A DNA stretch of 10,278 bases from Thermodesulfobacteriota bacterium (GTDB taxonomy: Bacteria > Desulfobacterota_D > UBA1144 > Nemesobacterales > JAJCZQ01), in assembly GCA_965203965.1 (NCBI GenBank), contig CBDBDR010000011.1, positions 1-10,278 on the forward strand. Reading direction: 5' to 3'. Made by a program: the position numbers and the translations under genes. Positions 1 through 9,300 of the stretch are shown here, piece after piece (position 1 is the first letter of the stretch; every line of letters begins with the position of its first letter). The notes beneath the pieces were generated by a model that was not told where the DNA came from, did not search any database, and saw only the letters and a list, made by a program, of their open reading frames with translations.

Positions 1-84
1 AGCATAAACCTGAATACTACAGTGTGTATAGCAACATAATAGATGCACATCATGTACAACAATGTACAATTAATCGATACCAAC

Positions 85-336
85 CAGTTTCCAAGCATCA
101 TTTTGTGATTTCCATTCCTCATTACCAGTGCTAGCTGTGCTGCCGGTCTGCTCAGCAACATGTTCTGCAATGCTGTTCATTTTGGTTGGTGCAGTGAATT
201 TGACAAGCTTTTTTAATCGACTGATTTCATCTTTACGACGGTGATACGTGATGTGAAAAGCAACAACAATCTCTGAAAAAGTGCATGGAGTTTGAATGAG
301 GTGATGGACATCTGGCTCCAATGTAGCAAGAACAAT
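85..336 (-). CDS. RNF213: RNF213-like exon IVLATLEPD...DAWKL (3' edge 85 or 81)
   Basis: TTGCAG acceptor; overlaps ORF 70..351; donor ambiguous (GTTGGT or GTATCG). Confidence 0.72.
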
Positions 337-3300
337 CTGCAATTTAAACACTTATAAATCTATTCTTTATTATTATAATAATAATTATACCTGTGTTTCA
401 TTTTCTCTTAAACTTTCATGTTTTAACAATGATGGCAAAGTAGCATTTATCAAATCTGTTATGTATCGTCGGCCCATTGAAACATGGTGCTCCTCTTTAA
501 TAGTGTTCAGAAGTTTGCATAAACAAGTCAGATTATCCTTCATGTCATAAACAAGATCCTTGAAGAGGACCGCTGATTCGGTTTCTACAAAAGGAGTTTA
601 ATGCATAGTATCAATGGTTTCTGACACTCACCAAAATTGGATAGCTTTAGCCTCCATCGAGTTTCCAAAGAATCTTGGAAAAAAACAGAAAAGGGAAAAG
701 AACACACAAATGAAATCTGATAGAGGTCAAATCTGTTTTCTATGGTGGCAAAATGTTGCTGTTTTACGACATCAGAAATGATTTTGTGTTTAAATGCTTC
801 TATCCAGAAACAAGTAACAGGTTCATTACTGCACAAAAGAAGTTCCAGATTGTAGTTAGTATCAATGGCTGCAATAATACCAGAAAGAACACCTGCTGTT
901 TCACTTTCAAGTCGCCTCAGAATAACATTCATGAATGCTCCTCCATGTTGAAGATGTAATGAATTGGTAGCCTCTTCAACAATCCAATTCCTCATTTTAT
1001 TGTCAGCTTCTTCCTTTTTCTTAAGGATGGAATGTATGTAGTCAACCAATACTTCATAAAAGTCTGAGAAAAAATGAATTAATTATAATGCAAACAGTAC
1101 ACATAATAATTATGCATACCCTTATTGAATTCATTCCGTAATAATGTTAGCAAAACTAAATTAAGTTGTTTCATTCTCTCAGCTGTTATACCAATTGGCA
1201 AATGGGCAGCTTTTTCTACGGCTTGCTGTATATGGACATATAGCTTTAAATTAGCCTGTTCCTTTCGTTCAAAATGTTGTGCTGTTGACAGGCTTGTGTC
1301 ACAAAGAGGTGGTTCAATGTAAATCTTACGGAACAGTTCACTGAGTAGCTTTTTATGTTCATCAAAGGCAAGAGAGACAGGTGAAAATGGCTGCACAGGA
1401 AAAAAGTCATCAATATGAGTGCATATCCATTCACCACCATGAAAGCAAACAAAAGATGACTTGCTGTTGCCATGCTTTCTTGGTAGGTACACTGTAAATA
1501 AAACGTGGAAGTGCCCTTTTGCTCTTTTTGATGGCTGTGATGATTGCTCTTCAAGTAAAGGAGATTTTGGCGGATCGAGCCTAGCAGATTCCTCTTGAAT
1601 GATGTCTTCAAGGCGATATTTTGCACAGGCTAACAAATCACCATTTAAGTGACCAGAACCACACTGGACTATGAGAAGTACATCTTCCTGATCATGATCA
1701 AATTTTTGATATTCCTCTCTGGTAAAATTAAAAAAATATTACAATGAGTAATGAGTATTAATTATTATTTACCTAACTTTTGTCGTATAACTAAACTCGG
1801 TATCAAATTGTTGAAGAGAACACAAAACAACACGAGATTGAAGATTCTCTTCAAGCTCGTCAATCTTTCCCTCTGAAACCAACTGATTATGTGTTGTAGC
1901 CTGTGCATAACATTAATTAATTAGAAGTACAAACACATGTTAAAAATCTTGCCTGCATAAGGACACCTTGCTTGGTAAATGTAGTCTTGGAAATATGGTA
2001 CTGCACAAAATCTTCCAAAGACATATGATGCTGCCTCTCCATATAGATCTTACACAACTTAGTGTGTTCTTCCACTAAAGGGGTGTTTATAAGACGAATC
2101 AATGCATCTGGAGATGCCATCTCAAGCAAAAGAGATTTGCACGACTCAAAAACCTACAAAGAGAAATTGAATAGCAGTGGTACTATAGAACAATAAAAAA
2201 TATATGGTGCAAGTTCACAAAATATCTATGATCATGTTGAGCTGAGCAGATATTACTCCTTTGGTGAGACACAACCATAAGCTAATTATTTTTATCAAGC
2301 AATTTTGCCCCAAGACTCAGACAAGTTTCACCAAAAGTTCGATTCAAGAGCAGCAAACAATGATTATAATTATGGCTTTTCTAAATAATAGTTAGACAGT
2401 GCATCCGAGGATCTACGCGATTTAGAAGCCCGAGAGCCGTTGCTATATAGCGTCCGAGCGTAGCGAGGACGCTATGGCAACGGCGTGAGGGCTTCTAAAT
2501 CGCGTAGATCCGATTGGATGCACTGTCCAACTGGTTTAGACTATAGCAACAGCGAACAGAAACGACGCAAGCCAGTCGAAATCAAACGAGCAAAGCAACG
2601 ACTCTCTTTTTGTCCCGTCTTTGTTGACGGCGATATTCCTTGGATACCCGTGGGCAGAACCATGAATAGGCTCCAGAGCAGTGCAAAGAAGAACGCCGTC
2701 GAAGTTTTAACTGAAGACTTGCTATGGGCTAAAGGTTTGCTAGGAGGTGAAACACCGAAGATGCTATTGGACACTGTAGTTTTCTACAATGGTCTGTACT
2801 TCGCACTACGCAGTGGGAGAGAGCATCGCCTATTGAGACATTCACCTTGCCAAGTTGAGGTGGTCGAAAAGCCAGGTGAGCGACCTTATCTACTCTACCA
2901 CAAAGACCGTGACACATCCAGGAACCATCCTAGTGGTCTACAGGGATGCAAAACTATGCCTAAGGTTGTTATTCGCTACTCTAACACACAGAACCCCGAG
3001 AGATGCTTCGTCGCTCTATTTAAAAAGTATAGACAACTTTGCCCTGACAATCCAGTGGACCGGCAACGCATTCTACCTGCAACCATCGCTTTCTCCAACT
3101 GAGACCTGCTGGTACACACGGAAACCAATGGGTCACGCCTCGCTCAGTAGTACAGTGGCTCGACTGTGCAAACAAGTTGGTTCCGACGACTAACCAGACT
3201 CAAGAGAGACTCACCAGAGATCTACCATAGCTAACTTTATTGATTATTCAGTATATTTTTGTGCATTAATCGTAATCTATTGTTTTAGCACCATGTGGCG

Positions 3301-6300
3301 GGATTACATTACGGAGTGGCGGGATTACATTATGGGTGGAGGGATTACATTACGAGATTTAGATCCAAGCAACTAGACAATCTGATTGGCTAATACCACT
3401 AAGCTATAGTCTAAGTCACAAGTTGACTTAGTTTATTTTACTGCTGAGTATAATGATTAAGAAAACATGAATAACATTTTGTCCAGTATTCACCGTCAGC
3501 ATCGAAATAATTTTTATTTTTCCACACATAATTTTTCTGTTAGCTATTATGTCTATTCACCTCTTTCTCCCACTCCTTTGATGTTGGATCCATCAGCTGA
3601 TTTGCAGATAAACTTTTTGAAGCAGTAAATACAATTGCTGAAGGTGTATCAGACTGAAATCCTACAAATGAATCAGAAGGCTGAAACCTACGTACATGAA
3701 ATGTGTATTCATTGATTGTATGGCAATTTCCACATACTCATAGTTAGGCACGCTGTTAAATTCTTCAATCCATCTTTTGATCAAAATTAAAACCTTCTTT
3801 TGTCTTTCATTCAGCACTGTTGATGTGTCCACTATATGTTTCTCAAGACGGTTAATAAGTGGAGTTGGGAATCGATCATAGACTTCCTTTTTCTCAGCAA
3901 TAATAATCAATCTATTGAATGCTGATTTAAAATCATACAATATACAATATTTAACGGACTTAAAGTCATTGTGAACACGGCACTTGATTCGATGTGTTTG
4001 CAGTCCAAGATCTACAAATCGTGTATCAGCTCCATACTCACGATAATACTGTAAATAAATTTGATTGGATTTATAATTGTATGCATGCATACACACATAC
4101 CTGGTTTAGCACATCATAAAGACTTTCATATTCTTCATACAGGTTCAGTAAAATGACTGTTCTTCCTGTTTCCATACAAATTTTAATTGTGTTGATGTTT
4201 CTGTACACCTAGGATATTGCAAATAATTATAGTTATACTGAGCTATATACAGCAATTCCTTCAGCACCTGAGTTATCTGTCTATCTTTAGAAAAACTGCT
4301 TCCAAATATAATCAAAGGTGGTTGCTGGTCTACAGTTACTGTAGCACCAGATTTGCTAGGAAGCTCATGAGACTGCTGATAGTTAACTTCAAAAAAGTGT
4401 TGTAATGTTTGAAGTGCTGCATAGCTCTCAGTCAAAAATAACAGGTACCGATTTTGACTAGAAATACAAGAAGACATGTACATGGACATGTAACTTGTAC
4501 TTACCCATGATATGATCGCTCTTTATTTGCTAAGCTAGCTTTTATCAATCCTGCTGGACTGCAATCAGGCTCAATAAGTGGCCATATCTGTACAATTAGA
4601 CATTATTTTTTATTACAAATTACAGCAATAATTATTATACCTTTTCTTCGAATTTTTGGTCCAAGTAACTTTCAAACTCAGTTTGAACTTTTTCATTACA
4701 AAATTGACCCCTCACCAGTTGATCGTGAAATAAGTGCAACAATTCATTTTCACTTTTCTTATTTTCATTCAGTTGTAGAAACTTTTCCTTCAATAATTTA
4801 CAAGCATTTTCATCATTTTTGAATGCATCACAAAGCTTTCCTCTCCATTCTTCTATTTTGACATGTTTATCAGGGACAGAAGGAAAATTAGTCAATTGTG
4901 ATTGCTCAAACACTTTCCATGGATCAAACCCATCATATCCACTAAAGTTCCGCAGTATCACATGCTTAATTTGTGCCTTATTAGGAACACATTCAGCCTC
5001 TTTACATAACCAGTACAGCATTTTGATCAAACTACAATAATAAAATTAATGAAATAAATTTTACTGCAAAACTTTCTAACCTGTAAAAGTCTCTCAAGCC
5101 AAAAAACTCTTTTCTGATCTCTCCAGCTTCACCATTTTGTTTGTTAATAATTTCCAAGTATAAACTAGCAAAATATTTGAAGCATGGTTCCAGCCATTCA
5201 GCTACTTTATCACCAGAGCAAATTTCCCTGTTTAAGTTAAATTATTGCATAAAAATATTATTGTCAAAAATAAATCATTACTTGGCACTTTCAAATAGCT
5301 CATCTTCCTGAGGATCACATCTAGTCACCATGATACCACGATTCATCTTGGCTGGATCTAGAGCCCAATTAGATATTCCAATAAACGCGACTCTGTCTTC
5401 ACGATCAACAACCTACAAAATAATTATAGTACATGATATCCATTGAAGCTGCATAAAATTAATTATGCCACGCGGTAGACGTGGCATATTTAGGGCTGGG
5501 CAGAAAACAAGATGGCGGCTACACATAGGCTAACGCAATAATTCATGTATATCTTGGCTATTGACGACATCAGTGGTATTTATTAGGGAGGCACGGTAGT
5601 GACTCCCTATGTAGGGATGAACGAGAAAACAAGATGGCGGCTACATACAATGTATTAGTGTTCAAACGCAGATATTTCGCCTGGTGATGAATTTTATACG
5701 TCCATAGACACTCAAATCTGCTATCTGGCGTTGCCCCATCTTACAGTAGCAAGGAGATTGCTCGAAATTGTTACTAAAGTGACGAACCTGGAAACGGTGA
5801 AAATCGAGTTTCGTCATCTTCGTTTTCTTTCTTTCTTTCTTTCTTCCACTCGCCTAGCACCTTTACGTGAGCAGTGCCGAGACCAAAACACCCACGAACA
5901 GTCGTGAAATTCTCCTGGCATGTGCCTTTTGAACTTTGTTTTTAGCGTAACGGCGATATAAATTCAGCGATTTCTCGATCGTGATCTATTGTCAGCTTAG
6001 TGTTAGACGCCATTATTGTGATTGCGCAATACGCACGTGACCAAGCAGTGGCTAGCGCACGTGACCAAGCAGTTAGAGTATCGCCGCGCCGTATGGATCA
6101 ATATCACGGTGAACACATACCTGGCATTTGTCTGGAGTCTTCGAAGAACGGTAAGCTCGTGTAGGATCGCCATTCTGCGCTTGCCAGATAATTATAACCG
6201 CCATATGTCTACAAACAAGGGTGGGCTGGGCTCGTATGCAATGCATGCATGCGTAGGCGACTAGGCAGAGCTGATTTGTCAATTTTAGCTACAAGTTTAA

Positions 6301-9300
6301 GAAAAGCCATCAACAACAGCAATACTAAACTAATGGTGGAAACAAAGACTTCTGAATACATGCATGATATTGAACTGCACTTCACTGAAAAAGAAAAAAG
6401 GACACAAACAAGTAAATTAAAAAGATTTCTATTGAAATCAAAAGGATGTAGTGATGAAGAAATCTACCACTGGTTCACAGTGTAAACCAACAAGGAACAA
6501 GCATGGAATGGTAACACGATTGACTTGCTAACAGACCATAGATCCCTACATCAGTGGCTGTACATAAGACTATGATCAATATTTTGTCACAAACAGCTGA
6601 ATTCAATTCAATGCACGTCAGGTGTCAGTCAACAGTAACTAGCTGAACTAGCTATGTCAGGCCACAGCAGCCACTGATGTAGGGATCTATGGTCTGTTAG
6701 CAAGTCAATCGTGTTACCATTCCATGCTTGTTCCTTTTTGGTTTACATTGTGAACCAGTGGTAGATTTCTTCATCACTACATCCTTTTGATTTCGATAGA
6801 AATCTTTTTAATTTACTTTATTATTATTTGCTGTACATGTAGTTATTATTATGCATGAAAGTGCCATGCAATCACTTATAATTATTATGCTATGGGATAT
6901 GAAATTAAATTATTATTAATGATTGGAGAATTGCCAACTAAGTATACTTATACTACAGCTCAATGTAATTCTAGAATCTGATTGGTCAGTTGGAGGAAAA
7001 TAGATCACATATTCTTCCGCGGGAACTCGATTGGAACTCGTCAGTGTTTTCCTCTGGCATGAGTTTCTTTTGTATACATTCAGTCTACTGTCTTATGTTC
7101 AGATTTATAGCACAGGTACTAGCTTTGGTAGTTACTGGTTGTGCGTTCGCTTCTTGGTATGGGCAGTGTCTATAGGCCAGGGTACTTGGCTACGATTGAC
7201 TTGTTGTGCATGAAAAGCGTAAGAAAGCAAGAAACTCACAGCATTTTGCTATGTTAACAGCTCAAAGCTTGCCTAATAAATGCACACAGCACGTACAAAA
7301 GACTATCATTCTAACTATTCGTTGGAGTCACAAGGTCAGCCATTGCAACGTGGAACGCAAAGTGGCGTTTGTGGGTGTGGCAGCTGGTCACAGTGCGTGT
7401 TTTCGAGCAAGAAGAAACGCTCGTGCTGCAGGAAATTGTCGCTTTGGGACGGTCATGAACCATTGTTATTCAAAAATATCTGTGTCGGTTTATTGTTGCC
7501 ATGTAGCTGTAGTATAAATACCTTAGACTACAAATCATCGGCAACTACGGGATTTAGAGCACCTTGGCAACTGAAATAGACGCCCTCGCGCTATGCGCTC
7601 GGGTTGTCTATACATCGGTTCCCGCGGTACTCTACACCCTGTAGTTGCTTCGATCCGTCGTCTAACCTATACGTATAAACTAAAAAAGATGAATAAAAAG
7701 GATGTAAAGACAGCTGATAAGCAATCTTTAATTCTGAATGAAATGAGCAATGAAGAAATCTACCACTGGAGAGGTAACACGGAATGATACACAATTAACT
7801 GCGCTACTGTAGGGTTGGGGCAATGCCAGATAATTTTTGAAGTAAGTATATCTTTGGTCACGTACAGTACCGTTCACGAGTAAGTGTACTCAAACCCGCG
7901 GGCTAACCGCGCGTAACTCGGGGGTGCCCGCGGGTTCGTGAACATGTACCCGCTGCCCGTACCACACTAACCCGCGGCCCTCATGCAGCCTTGCATGCAC
8001 TCGCGCCCCGCTAGATAGCTAGGCAGACTCACGTTGTCGTTGTGCGACCTGCGCGAGCATATACAGTGCTCGCACGTATCCGCACCAGCGCGTGATGCAC
8101 TCTGTATTTGCATCTACCCGCGGTTAATGATATACGGTTCCGCGGGCAAGACAAAATTACCCCCGGGTTGCCTGCGAGTCTCCCGCGGGTGTTGGTCCAC
8201 TTACTCGTGAGCGGTACTGTACATTATTTTTACCACCTGGTGAAATACTACTACATGGCATTGCAGCTTCATTTTTCCGCCTATCCCATGCAAACTTACA
8301 TCGACGGAATAGTTGCTTCCTTCAGTTCCATCTTCTAACCAAGGATGAAGGACCTTTAGTGGTAGACCAGGTGAGTCCTCAGCAAGTCCTACTTCATCAA
8401 GTACAACAACAGACACAAATTTGTTTCTGTCTATTTTTCTTTGTATTGCAATAGCTTGTTCAAAAACATTTGAAATACTTTCAGAAGTTGATAGTTGACT
8501 GCACTGATATGAAAACATTTGAATCTACAATAAAAGAACATTGATTATTAATTTTGATAGGACTATATTAATATAGTTAGCATCACCTCTTTAAAATTTT
8601 GCAAAAATCCACTTCCCGTCATCGAATCATTAACAATTTTTTTAGCAAGTGATTTAGAAGTTCCCGGTTTGCCAATAAGGAATAGTGGTATCTTCACATT
8701 TGCACAAACCACCATCATCATGACATTCTCACAAAGTGCTCTGTTGTGTGCAATATTCTGTCCAACTTCTCGCATGTTGTTTAAAAATACTTCCTGGCAG
8801 CTTTAAAAATAGGAAGTACCCATTACAAGTGATCGCATATGTTGCTGCTTTGTTCTTACCGAAGAACATGGTCGACAAAATGTTCTGGTGTAATTCGACA
8901 CAATGGATATTCAAAAACAGGTGAGACAGCAGCTACAAAATCGTCCCGCTTAGCTCGTTCTTGAAGTCTTGCATAGTAGCAAACTGACAGAGCCAAAAGA
9001 ACTGCTCTTGTTGTTTTACACTATATATATCATAAATACAAACACAATACTATTGTTCAACCAATTACCGTTATAAAAGTTGAATTCTTGAATAACTTCC
9101 TCATTTCAGATTCAATCACGTCTGATTTTTCAATGAAGAACTTGAAGACAATCATTGTTCTATCCACATCACGCAGACTCACATAGCTGCATTCATCCTA
9201 TGAAGATGATACATGATTAAGTTGATTGGTGTATAACACATAATGCAAAAAGCTGACCTTTGTATTTCTCATAAAATCTTGTGATGCATTCAGAATACTA

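Follow-up and report, generated by a model that had tools for sequence, protein, structure and literature searches.

A gene-less Crypton-type element whose ends suggest movement as a folded single strand spliced by a DUF3504 recombinase

How Cryptons transpose has not been demonstrated, and a double-stranded circle is assumed (2026 review, PMC13565253). No terminal repeats are reported for animal Cryptons in the CryptonA description (PMC3212892), and the main text of the Glomhopper paper contains neither the word 'hairpin' nor the word 'circular' (PMC13465315). For two other recombinases, IntI acting on attC (PMC8946536) and XerC acting on CTX attP(+) (PMC3442271), a single exchange is described that is resolved by replication. 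Here we analyze element 2, a 725-bp sequence on the minus strand of a 10,278-nt stretch of DNA (contig C11 of assembly G000, positions 1-10278, hereafter the window), together with a companion in the same window, element 1, and with related elements that encode DUF3504 tyrosine recombinases. By enzyme and size, element 2 is very probably a non-autonomous CryptonA-type element. That it is a gene-less member of a Crypton-type family likely moving as a folded single strand spliced by the DUF3504 recombinase is the reading we favor, with appreciably less confidence.

To describe its anatomy, we compared element 2 with a homologue on contig C4 of the same assembly, with related contigs from the Logan collection, and with relatives at other loci. 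Its parts, from the left flank to the right flank of the minus strand, are:

6948..7672, minus strand: element 2, whole, 725 bp, non-autonomous and non-coding
7673..7675, minus strand: left half-site of the host target, TAC (consensus TAH), from the flank alignment
7666..7672, minus strand: left spacer GTATAGG, 7 nt, the first bases of the element (ATATAGG in relatives L103 and L104)
7660..7665, minus strand: inner arm TTAGAC, the base of the hairpin, from the sequence
7523..7665, minus strand: imperfect hairpin of 143 nt, from TTAGAC to GTCTAA (DNA fold z -5.6)
7583..7603, minus strand: hairpin apex, a tandem GA/GA mismatch and a triloop, which is ATA here and GTA in ~97% of the summed contig depth
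7518..7522, minus strand: internal spacer GGTAT, 5 nt, opposite the 7-nt spacer in the fold (from sequence and fold)
7505..7517, minus strand: internal complement of the far end, TTATACTACAGCT, a 13/13 match
7011..7040, minus strand: decayed subterminal repeats (GAGTTCC...), of which the C4 homologue has three copies of ~20 nt
6978..6984, minus strand: CAATCAG motif, whose start lies 37 nt from the far end, as in 16/17 motif-bearing far ends
6948..6960, minus strand: far end AGCTGTAGTATAA, the outer arm (from the sequence, the C4 homologue and contig ends)
6938..6947, minus strand: spacer GTATAC and right half-site TTAG of the host target (consensus N6-DTA), from the flank alignment

The boundaries of element 2 were determined from three sources. 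The C4 homologue is 78% identical, has the same body and both ends in different flanks, and diverges upstream of the spacer. Among the Logan contig pieces listed (four public runs, at most two samples), four end at 7671 and two at 7670, and there is a loose end at 6948. Finally, a 772-bp relative in assembly G061 (L103) reads CAATAT^ATATAGG-TTATAC...GGTAT-TTATACTATA...GTATAGTATAA^AGTAAT-TTAT (carets mark element ends), with its internal copy and far end altered together relative to element 2. Because of the C4 divergence point, the contig-piece ends and the L103 flank, we place element 2 at 6948-7672. A first-pass annotation, made from the letters alone, had quoted the motifs correctly (on the minus strand, TATACGTATAGGTTAGAC at 7677-7660, the apex at 7603-7583 and the far end at 6948-6960) and had set the left boundary at 7677. 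Positions 7673-7677 are host DNA, TATAC being the host target of element 2 as TCTAA is that of element 1. The sequence GTATA occurs both at the start of element 2 and just past its end, a 5-nt ambiguity in a single copy that is settled by the family. The predicted empty site on the minus strand is thus TTTATAC-GTATAC-TTAG (TTTATACGTATACTTAG), one base different from the TTTATAA-GTATAC-TTAG (TTTATAAGTATACTTAG) proposed before. The predicted junction is AGCTGTAGTATAA-GTATAGG-TTAGAC, which reads GTATAA^G. The earlier idea of such a junction holds in that junctions of this type exist head-to-tail at two loci (G000:C1 and L005, described below), with the spacer corrected to the 7-nt GTATAGG; in place of the terminal TATA repeat then taken as the crossover unit, a 7-nt junction spacer is set against a 5-nt internal spacer.

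The hairpin, foreseen at ~140 nt, spans 143 nt (7665-7523), with a predicted DNA folding energy of -36.1 kcal/mol that none of 200 shuffles equaled. The copy in the window is decayed: the majority letters of related contigs make six listed positions Watson-Crick and turn one A-T pair into G·T, and at apex position 7594 the GTA triloop is supported by 56274 of 58060 of the summed depth in X1. A match of 13/13 between the internal copy and the far end (6948-6960) is expected by chance at ~1.4e-4 within 4 kb. When the whole 725-nt strand was folded, the two paired with a probability of 0.81-1.0 and both spacers stayed open. As had been claimed, the internal copy of each of the two elements matches its own end, at 12/12 in both, and the best of 17 other far-end types reaches 10/12 in each. 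A six-frame profile search of element 2 detected no coding remnant (best E ~1), nor did that of the C4 homologue, and we therefore file element 2 as non-autonomous. Long inverted repeats at its termini are absent. The CAAT motif at 37 nt, which is missing from 32/49 far ends of the family, and the ~20-nt repeats upstream of it may be accessory binding sites. An apparent back-joint from 7613 to 6961 in one contig has unknown letters between its halves and was left unused.

The link to a recombinase comes from the companion element and its relatives:

2385..3414, plus strand: element 1, with the same blueprint and a broken DUF3504 fragment at ~2641-3190 (PF12012, E 1.6e-21)

By blueprint we mean the order 7-nt spacer, TTAGAC, hairpin (143 nt in element 2), 5-nt spacer and far-end complement (13 nt). 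Element 1 has a 7-nt spacer, a hairpin with a DNA fold of -67.5 kcal/mol (z -13.6) and the junction GTCTAA^A. The two elements had been offered as independent evidence, with no similarity in stems or bodies. The stems have TCTAAATC(C/G)CGTAG in common (13/14; E 0.59, weak by itself), and in either body a CAATC-GATT motif begins at exactly 37 nt from the far end; because of these shared motifs we regard the two elements as diverged relatives rather than separate inventions. The recombinase fragment of element 1 has 72 longer relatives, full-length ones included, in which R, K, HxxR, H and Y are conserved (20 aligned). With the recombinase alignment 87 genomic loci were obtained, 75 of which have at least 800 nt upstream. 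The association with DUF3504 genes that the first-pass annotation had suggested checking was found at 39 of these 75 loci, where the strict blueprint lies upstream on the strand of the gene.

A first, loose scanner gave many AT-rich false hits and was made stricter. In controls, the stricter version had no hit, either on contig C17 (1.5 Mb) or among shuffled loci (575 kb). Its 70 hits minus 9 artefacts or duplicates left 61 curated copies, all of which have a 7-nt junction spacer and a 5-nt internal spacer (61/61); the scanner itself fixed the 5-nt spacing, and the 7-nt length comes from flank divergence. The hits stem from seven assemblies (G000, G061, G062 and records prefixed WLWD, WLWI, JAAGOD and VSKX), most of them from WLWD. 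Hairpin length and end pairing are conserved across the family, as had been proposed, and this conservation suggests that the structure would be required in cis. Outer arms match their own internal copies at 10.6 of 12 positions and those of others at 7.3, a score that is partly circular because ends were chosen by that match. When the 37-nt motif alone is used to place far ends, the result is the same as by pairing in 14/14 cases, with 9-12 of 12 pairs; this rule was written after seeing ends, yet it is less circular than the outer-arm score.

The same ends enclose DUF3504 genes in elements of 1.5-2.9 kb, in agreement with the earlier proposal of a recombinase-driven system with gene-less passengers. 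In 28 complete long elements the recombinase match occupies most of the interior, and elements of this size leave no room for a reverse transcriptase or a Rep/Helicase as well. In 15 of the 28, a single stop-free frame passes an all-motif regular expression (in L086 spuriously); an intact autonomous copy is not proven, because no passing frame reaches 400 aa. A left end of the element 2 type, ATATAGG...GGTAT-TTATACTA, runs into a recombinase N-terminus at L104/L106, in another genome (profile positions 63-105, E 3.7e-5); within the 19.5 kb fetched, L106 has no far end and no further recombinase. The structure model of the recombinase P0005 (mean predicted local distance difference test score, pLDDT, 67) matches QRICH1 and Cre/Xer-type recombinases, including Cre itself (1pvq_B, Z 13.8, root-mean-square deviation (rmsd) 8.4 A, 271 aligned).

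Several members of the family were observed in passing. The element at G000:C14:1156-2068 (913 bp) has a GTACTAG spacer, CAGGT, an internal far-end copy and the target TGC^GAGGTG-ATAG. A third family is represented by the 908-bp element at G000:C15:91600-92507, which has three subterminal repeats and whose target, ATAC^ATGTGA-GTAT, is a perfect palindrome. Mini versions with hairpins of 57-112 nt, each with its own matched end and internal copy, occur at L045, L053, L054 and L067; those at L053 and L054 are 198 bp long, and those at L045 and L067 are without the GNA apex. In the L015 family (~12 left ends), which has the same ATAATAG spacer, the first pair of the inner arm shows a compensatory change, giving ATAGAC/GTCTAT. 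At L107 two DUF3504 recombinase remnants lie in opposite orientation within 5 kb, and ends were checked for one of them.

The hairpins carry a strand signature. In 18 hairpin families, the element strand has 89 G·A against 7 C·T and 19 G·G against 4 C·C mismatches, 22 of 33 two-by-two loops are GA/GA, and a C(GNA)G lies near the apex in 45/61 copies, with the opposite-strand version in none. The sequence GCGNAGC is the very stable mini-hairpin of DNA (PMC13037366). Tandem G·A pairs form in RNA too, and bridge RNA provides a model for a transcript that guides a recombinase. The structure might accordingly act at the RNA level, through such a guide transcript or through a reverse transcriptase supplied in trans with a DIRS-like internal complementary region; DIRS-1 indeed combines a non-coding region complementary to both ends with a tyrosine recombinase (PMC5633606). 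We consider this improbable: the autonomous elements lack room for a reverse transcriptase, the internal copy matches its own end alone, and the targets share no sequence that a guide could read. Moreover, the mini-hairpin class is much less stable as RNA (PMC13037366, with a figure for the 4-nt-loop form only).

To define the target site, we aligned flanks of the curated copies. Four doubtful and 8 absent far ends were removed, and tandem junctions (2 left, 3 right) were omitted, leaving 59 left and 46 right flanks; the flanks were not a scan criterion. TA occurs at -3/-2 in 49/59 left flanks (background 0.10) and at +8/+9 in 26/46 right flanks (background 0.135, p 9e-12). The resulting consensus, TAH^N6-DTA, is a loose palindrome around a 6-nt center, and the element 2 locus fits it (TAC^GTATAC-TTAG). 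No family-wide direct repeat was detected among the flanks examined. The base preceding the element varies (A 25, T 18, C 14, G 2; n=59) and the element end is fixed as TAA, and we therefore place the exchange just after the third base of the left half-site.

The spacer is one-sided. Left ends were collected through the similarity of their hairpins, with a query that omitted the spacer (132 rows, of which 51 were flagged as a backward-read 3' arm and L036 was also removed by eye), and 79 of the 80 have a family-type spacer on the left. On the right, the 7-nt spacer is present in 0/46 flanks and its first 4 nt are repeated in 2/46, one of which is the 5-bp GTATA repeat of element 2. The spacer measures 7 nt in the element and 6 nt in the target. 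A left-only spacer matches the prediction of a single strand exchange, and the hairpin features point to the same strand. The published model (PMC13565253), a double-stranded circle, would involve two exchanges across unlike spacers, which by our inference should strip the left spacer from about half of the copies, and it leaves the 7-nt versus 6-nt difference and the one-strand GA/GA and GNA features unexplained. With such a circle, the internal copy would be an accessory binding site, the hairpin would serve expression or priming, and the internal copy and far end would covary because one family-specific recombinase reads both. This model has real points on its side: the internal GTCTAA-N5-TTA(G/T)AC in duplex DNA is itself a two-arm site, the outer arm has no wobble bias, the inner arm of the largest family contains an A·C mismatch, and Starships use a circular intermediate of unstated strandedness (bioRxiv 10.64898/2026.09.21.753150). 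We judge it rather unlikely, though far better placed than the RNA-level reading.

Junctions between the two ends occur naturally. At G000:C1:2011-2752, two copies of a 371-bp gene-less element form a head-to-tail dimer with the junction GCTGTGGTCTAA-ATAATGG-TTAGAC, and at L005:2983-6330 a head-to-tail array with two junctions consists of a recombinase-bearing copy, a gene-less unit of 316 bp and one more left end, the third. Both types of junction fold as a single continuous stem, that of C1 at -64.1 on the element strand versus -53.3 on the other. The tandem copies show that the junction can exist, not that there is a free circle.

We propose the following steps for movement as a folded single strand. 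In the single-stranded element strand, the hairpin would form and the internal copy would pair with the far end, placing the last base beside the first; because this pairing is present in the whole-strand fold, the ends could be brought together without any circle. The recombinase, given in trans, would then cut the strand after TAH and after TAA and exchange the ends, yielding a single-stranded circle, and the other strand would retain the element, so that copy number could increase. The circle junction would fold to one stem made of outer arm, 7/5-nt mismatched spacer, inner arm and long terminal hairpin, a recombinase site built from one strand. A single exchange with a target strand, made at the left edge of the two spacers, would produce an atypical Holliday junction, to be resolved by replication, and the outcome would be TAH^7-nt spacer...TAA^N6-DTA, without duplication. 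Extended to animal DUF3504 Cryptons in general, this would be a peel-and-paste mechanism in which the recombinase lifts a folded strand into nearly any TA-N8-TA site by one exchange, the site consisting of the two ends plus an internal splint, with gene-less passengers down to 200-400 bp; it would be an independent eukaryotic invention of the integron/CTX strategy. We lean only slightly towards this general form.

Several results weigh against movement as a folded single strand. Neither a circle nor a single-stranded form nor an empty allele was seen; none of the related contigs listed contains a joint skipping element 2, but on one flank 6820-6924 is without cover. No complete autonomous element with exactly the ends of element 2 was found. 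The strict blueprint is absent at 36/75 DUF3504 loci: 18 of these are somewhat similar to it (three over merely 26-54 nt), and 18 show no similarity within 1.2 kb, among them L030 and L038, where a related left end lies further upstream, and L087, with a different hairpin and the same apex. The counts overstate independence, since the families share ancestry and a single assembly supplies most of the copies. Likewise, the family representatives, related by descent, were picked by element-strand folding energy. Wobble pairs give no clear strand bias, because the difference between G·T and A·C is not significant in stems (49 vs 31, p 0.057) and the outer arm has 4 vs 6. The inner arm of the largest family (L003 type) contains an A·C mismatch on the favored strand. 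The L005 junction folds alike on both strands (-61.2 vs -62.2). One left end, at L057:2896-2908, begins exactly at TTAGAC without the family spacer and is either a truncation or a rare product of the other strand. Finally, target starts match spacer starts above background (first base, 19/46 vs 12.4; two bases, 9/46 vs 3.1), and for that reason target homology may be used to some extent.

The layout of element 2 on the plus strand, with a terminal repeat, a subterminal inverted partner and a terminal stem-loop, is also that of HINEs (PMC4067079). This would make it a Helentron-derived non-autonomous element of the HINE/DINE-1 type, moved by a Rep/Helicase, with the recombinase gene as captured cargo. 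In several families and assemblies the recombinase gene stands at a fixed place and on a fixed strand, within elements whose length leaves no room for a Rep/Helicase, and the target is TAH^N6-DTA, not TT. All the long elements found hold a recombinase, but the loci were fetched via the recombinase and no search for a Rep/Helicase carrier was made. A Helentron origin appears very improbable to us, the least probable of the readings considered.

Short exons on the minus strand of the window match RNF213 (E 1.7e-9), and for this reason we read the window as animal DNA. The minus strand appears to hold an RNF213-like gene with many introns, elements 1 and 2 both sit between its exons, and element 2 lies inside a repeat-rich intron at ~5413-8300 (splice sites judged by eye). 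Assembly G000 has 2 Mb, with a largest contig of 1.5 Mb, and its relatives were treated as prokaryotes; it is scored as 99.5% complete and 0.07% contaminated, yet contigs C1, C4, C11, C14 and C15 hold animal repeats. Megabase contigs bearing blueprint elements are also present in G061 and G062. No copy of the element was found in 60 bacterial relatives of G000, as expected if host DNA was binned with the bacterium. The summed contig depth in X1, which is not a copy number, is ~1e4-6e4 at the ends of element 2 versus 46 on its flank, and suggests that the family is highly abundant. No RNA holder is listed for element 2, which says nothing on expression. Among viral contigs, the recombinase scan revealed no relative. 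The pattern scan of these contigs gave 2 loci without hairpin context, both judged to be chance matches and presumably lying in phage structural genes.

Other repeats surround element 2. At 6410-6818, inverted arms of 151 bp, 98% complementary and 107 nt apart, resemble a MITE (a transposable element of miniature size with inverted repeats), and a 20-nt piece of it is found again, inverted, at 7750-7769. At 7865-8219 there is a GC-rich palindromic element, CAGTACCG...CGGTACTG, with TA on either side, which resembles a Tc1/mariner-type MITE. A repeat at 5458-5645 contains a 22-nt direct duplication (5502, 5624), and a similar sequence follows the C1 dimer.

We found no description of these ends for Cryptons in the literature searched, although Repbase may note them. 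The blueprint defines the ends exactly and supplies a target consensus, the position of the cut and a minimal substrate (the natural junction is ~180 nt), so that the Crypton mechanism can be put to a direct test using one protein and oligonucleotides. If the proposed mechanism is true, a eukaryotic recombinase does what the literature searched describes for bacterial integrons and phages only; it would need little target homology and could serve for the insertion of single-stranded donors. It also bears on the ancestral activity of domesticated DUF3504 proteins (ZMYM2-4, QRICH1, KCTD1), and gene-less repeats now read as HINEs may be reclassified.

Among known systems, element 2 is closest to CryptonA in its enzyme and closest to attC and CTX attP in its predicted mode of action. 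Like CryptonA (PMC3212892), the family has a single DUF3504 tyrosine recombinase, short abundant gene-less derivatives, no terminal inverted repeats (TIR) or target site duplications (TSD), and an autonomous length of ~2 kb (CryptonA-1_OL, 2073 bp). Its ends also flank DUF3504 recombinase genes, full-length relatives of which keep the catalytic residues, and the assignment of that recombinase to CryptonA rests on PF12012 and the published description. The difference lies in the defined end blueprint, the target consensus and the strand signature found here, the printed CryptonA model being a double-stranded circle. The 4-6 bp terminal direct repeats of CryptonF and CryptonS are absent. DIRS-1 has an internal non-coding copy complementary to its ends, a tyrosine recombinase and a circular intermediate (PMC5633606), whereas the 28 complete elements show no reverse transcriptase/RNase H and gag between inverted terminal repeats, and the internal copy here is one arm of a hairpin site. 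Helentrons, HINEs and DINE-1 have a ~13-bp asymmetric inverted repeat beside a terminal stem-loop (PMC4067079), and element 2 likewise combines subterminal inverted repeats with a terminal stem-loop, though its hairpin has 143 nt; they differ in their TT target, which is not the site used here, their short stem-loop and their Rep/Helicase partner. In SE elements a tyrosine recombinase circularizes one strand and the target has a 6-bp central region, but SEs carry a variable 6 bp from the donor and four core genes, with no attC-like inverted repeats detected.

Integron attC sites are a parallel to the predicted folded junction: like attC, the junction would be a folded single-strand site in which two arms flank an unpaired central spacer and the terminal structure is variable, with the cut following the ...AA of the outer arm and one exchange with a duplex site (PMC7439510, PMC8946536). 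The predicted fold and the strand signature would fit an attC-type site. In contrast to integrons, no attI platform or cassette array is known here (attI was not looked for); the far ends, GTATAA in element 2 and GTCTAA^A in element 1, do not follow the RYYYAAC R box; the terminal hairpin is ~130 nt and conserved; and each end of one element contributes a part of the site. By structure, the P0005 model is no nearer to IntI, which ranks 25th among the matches, below Cre and Xer (2a3v_C, Z 9.9, rmsd 9.5 A, 250 aligned), than to Cre (Z 13.8). CTX phage uses the host XerCD, one fixed dif target and a single strand from a packaged genome (PMC3442271), whereas the blueprint family carries its own recombinase and has a degenerate target. 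By analogy, element 2 would likely work like attC or CTX attP, but belong to neither.

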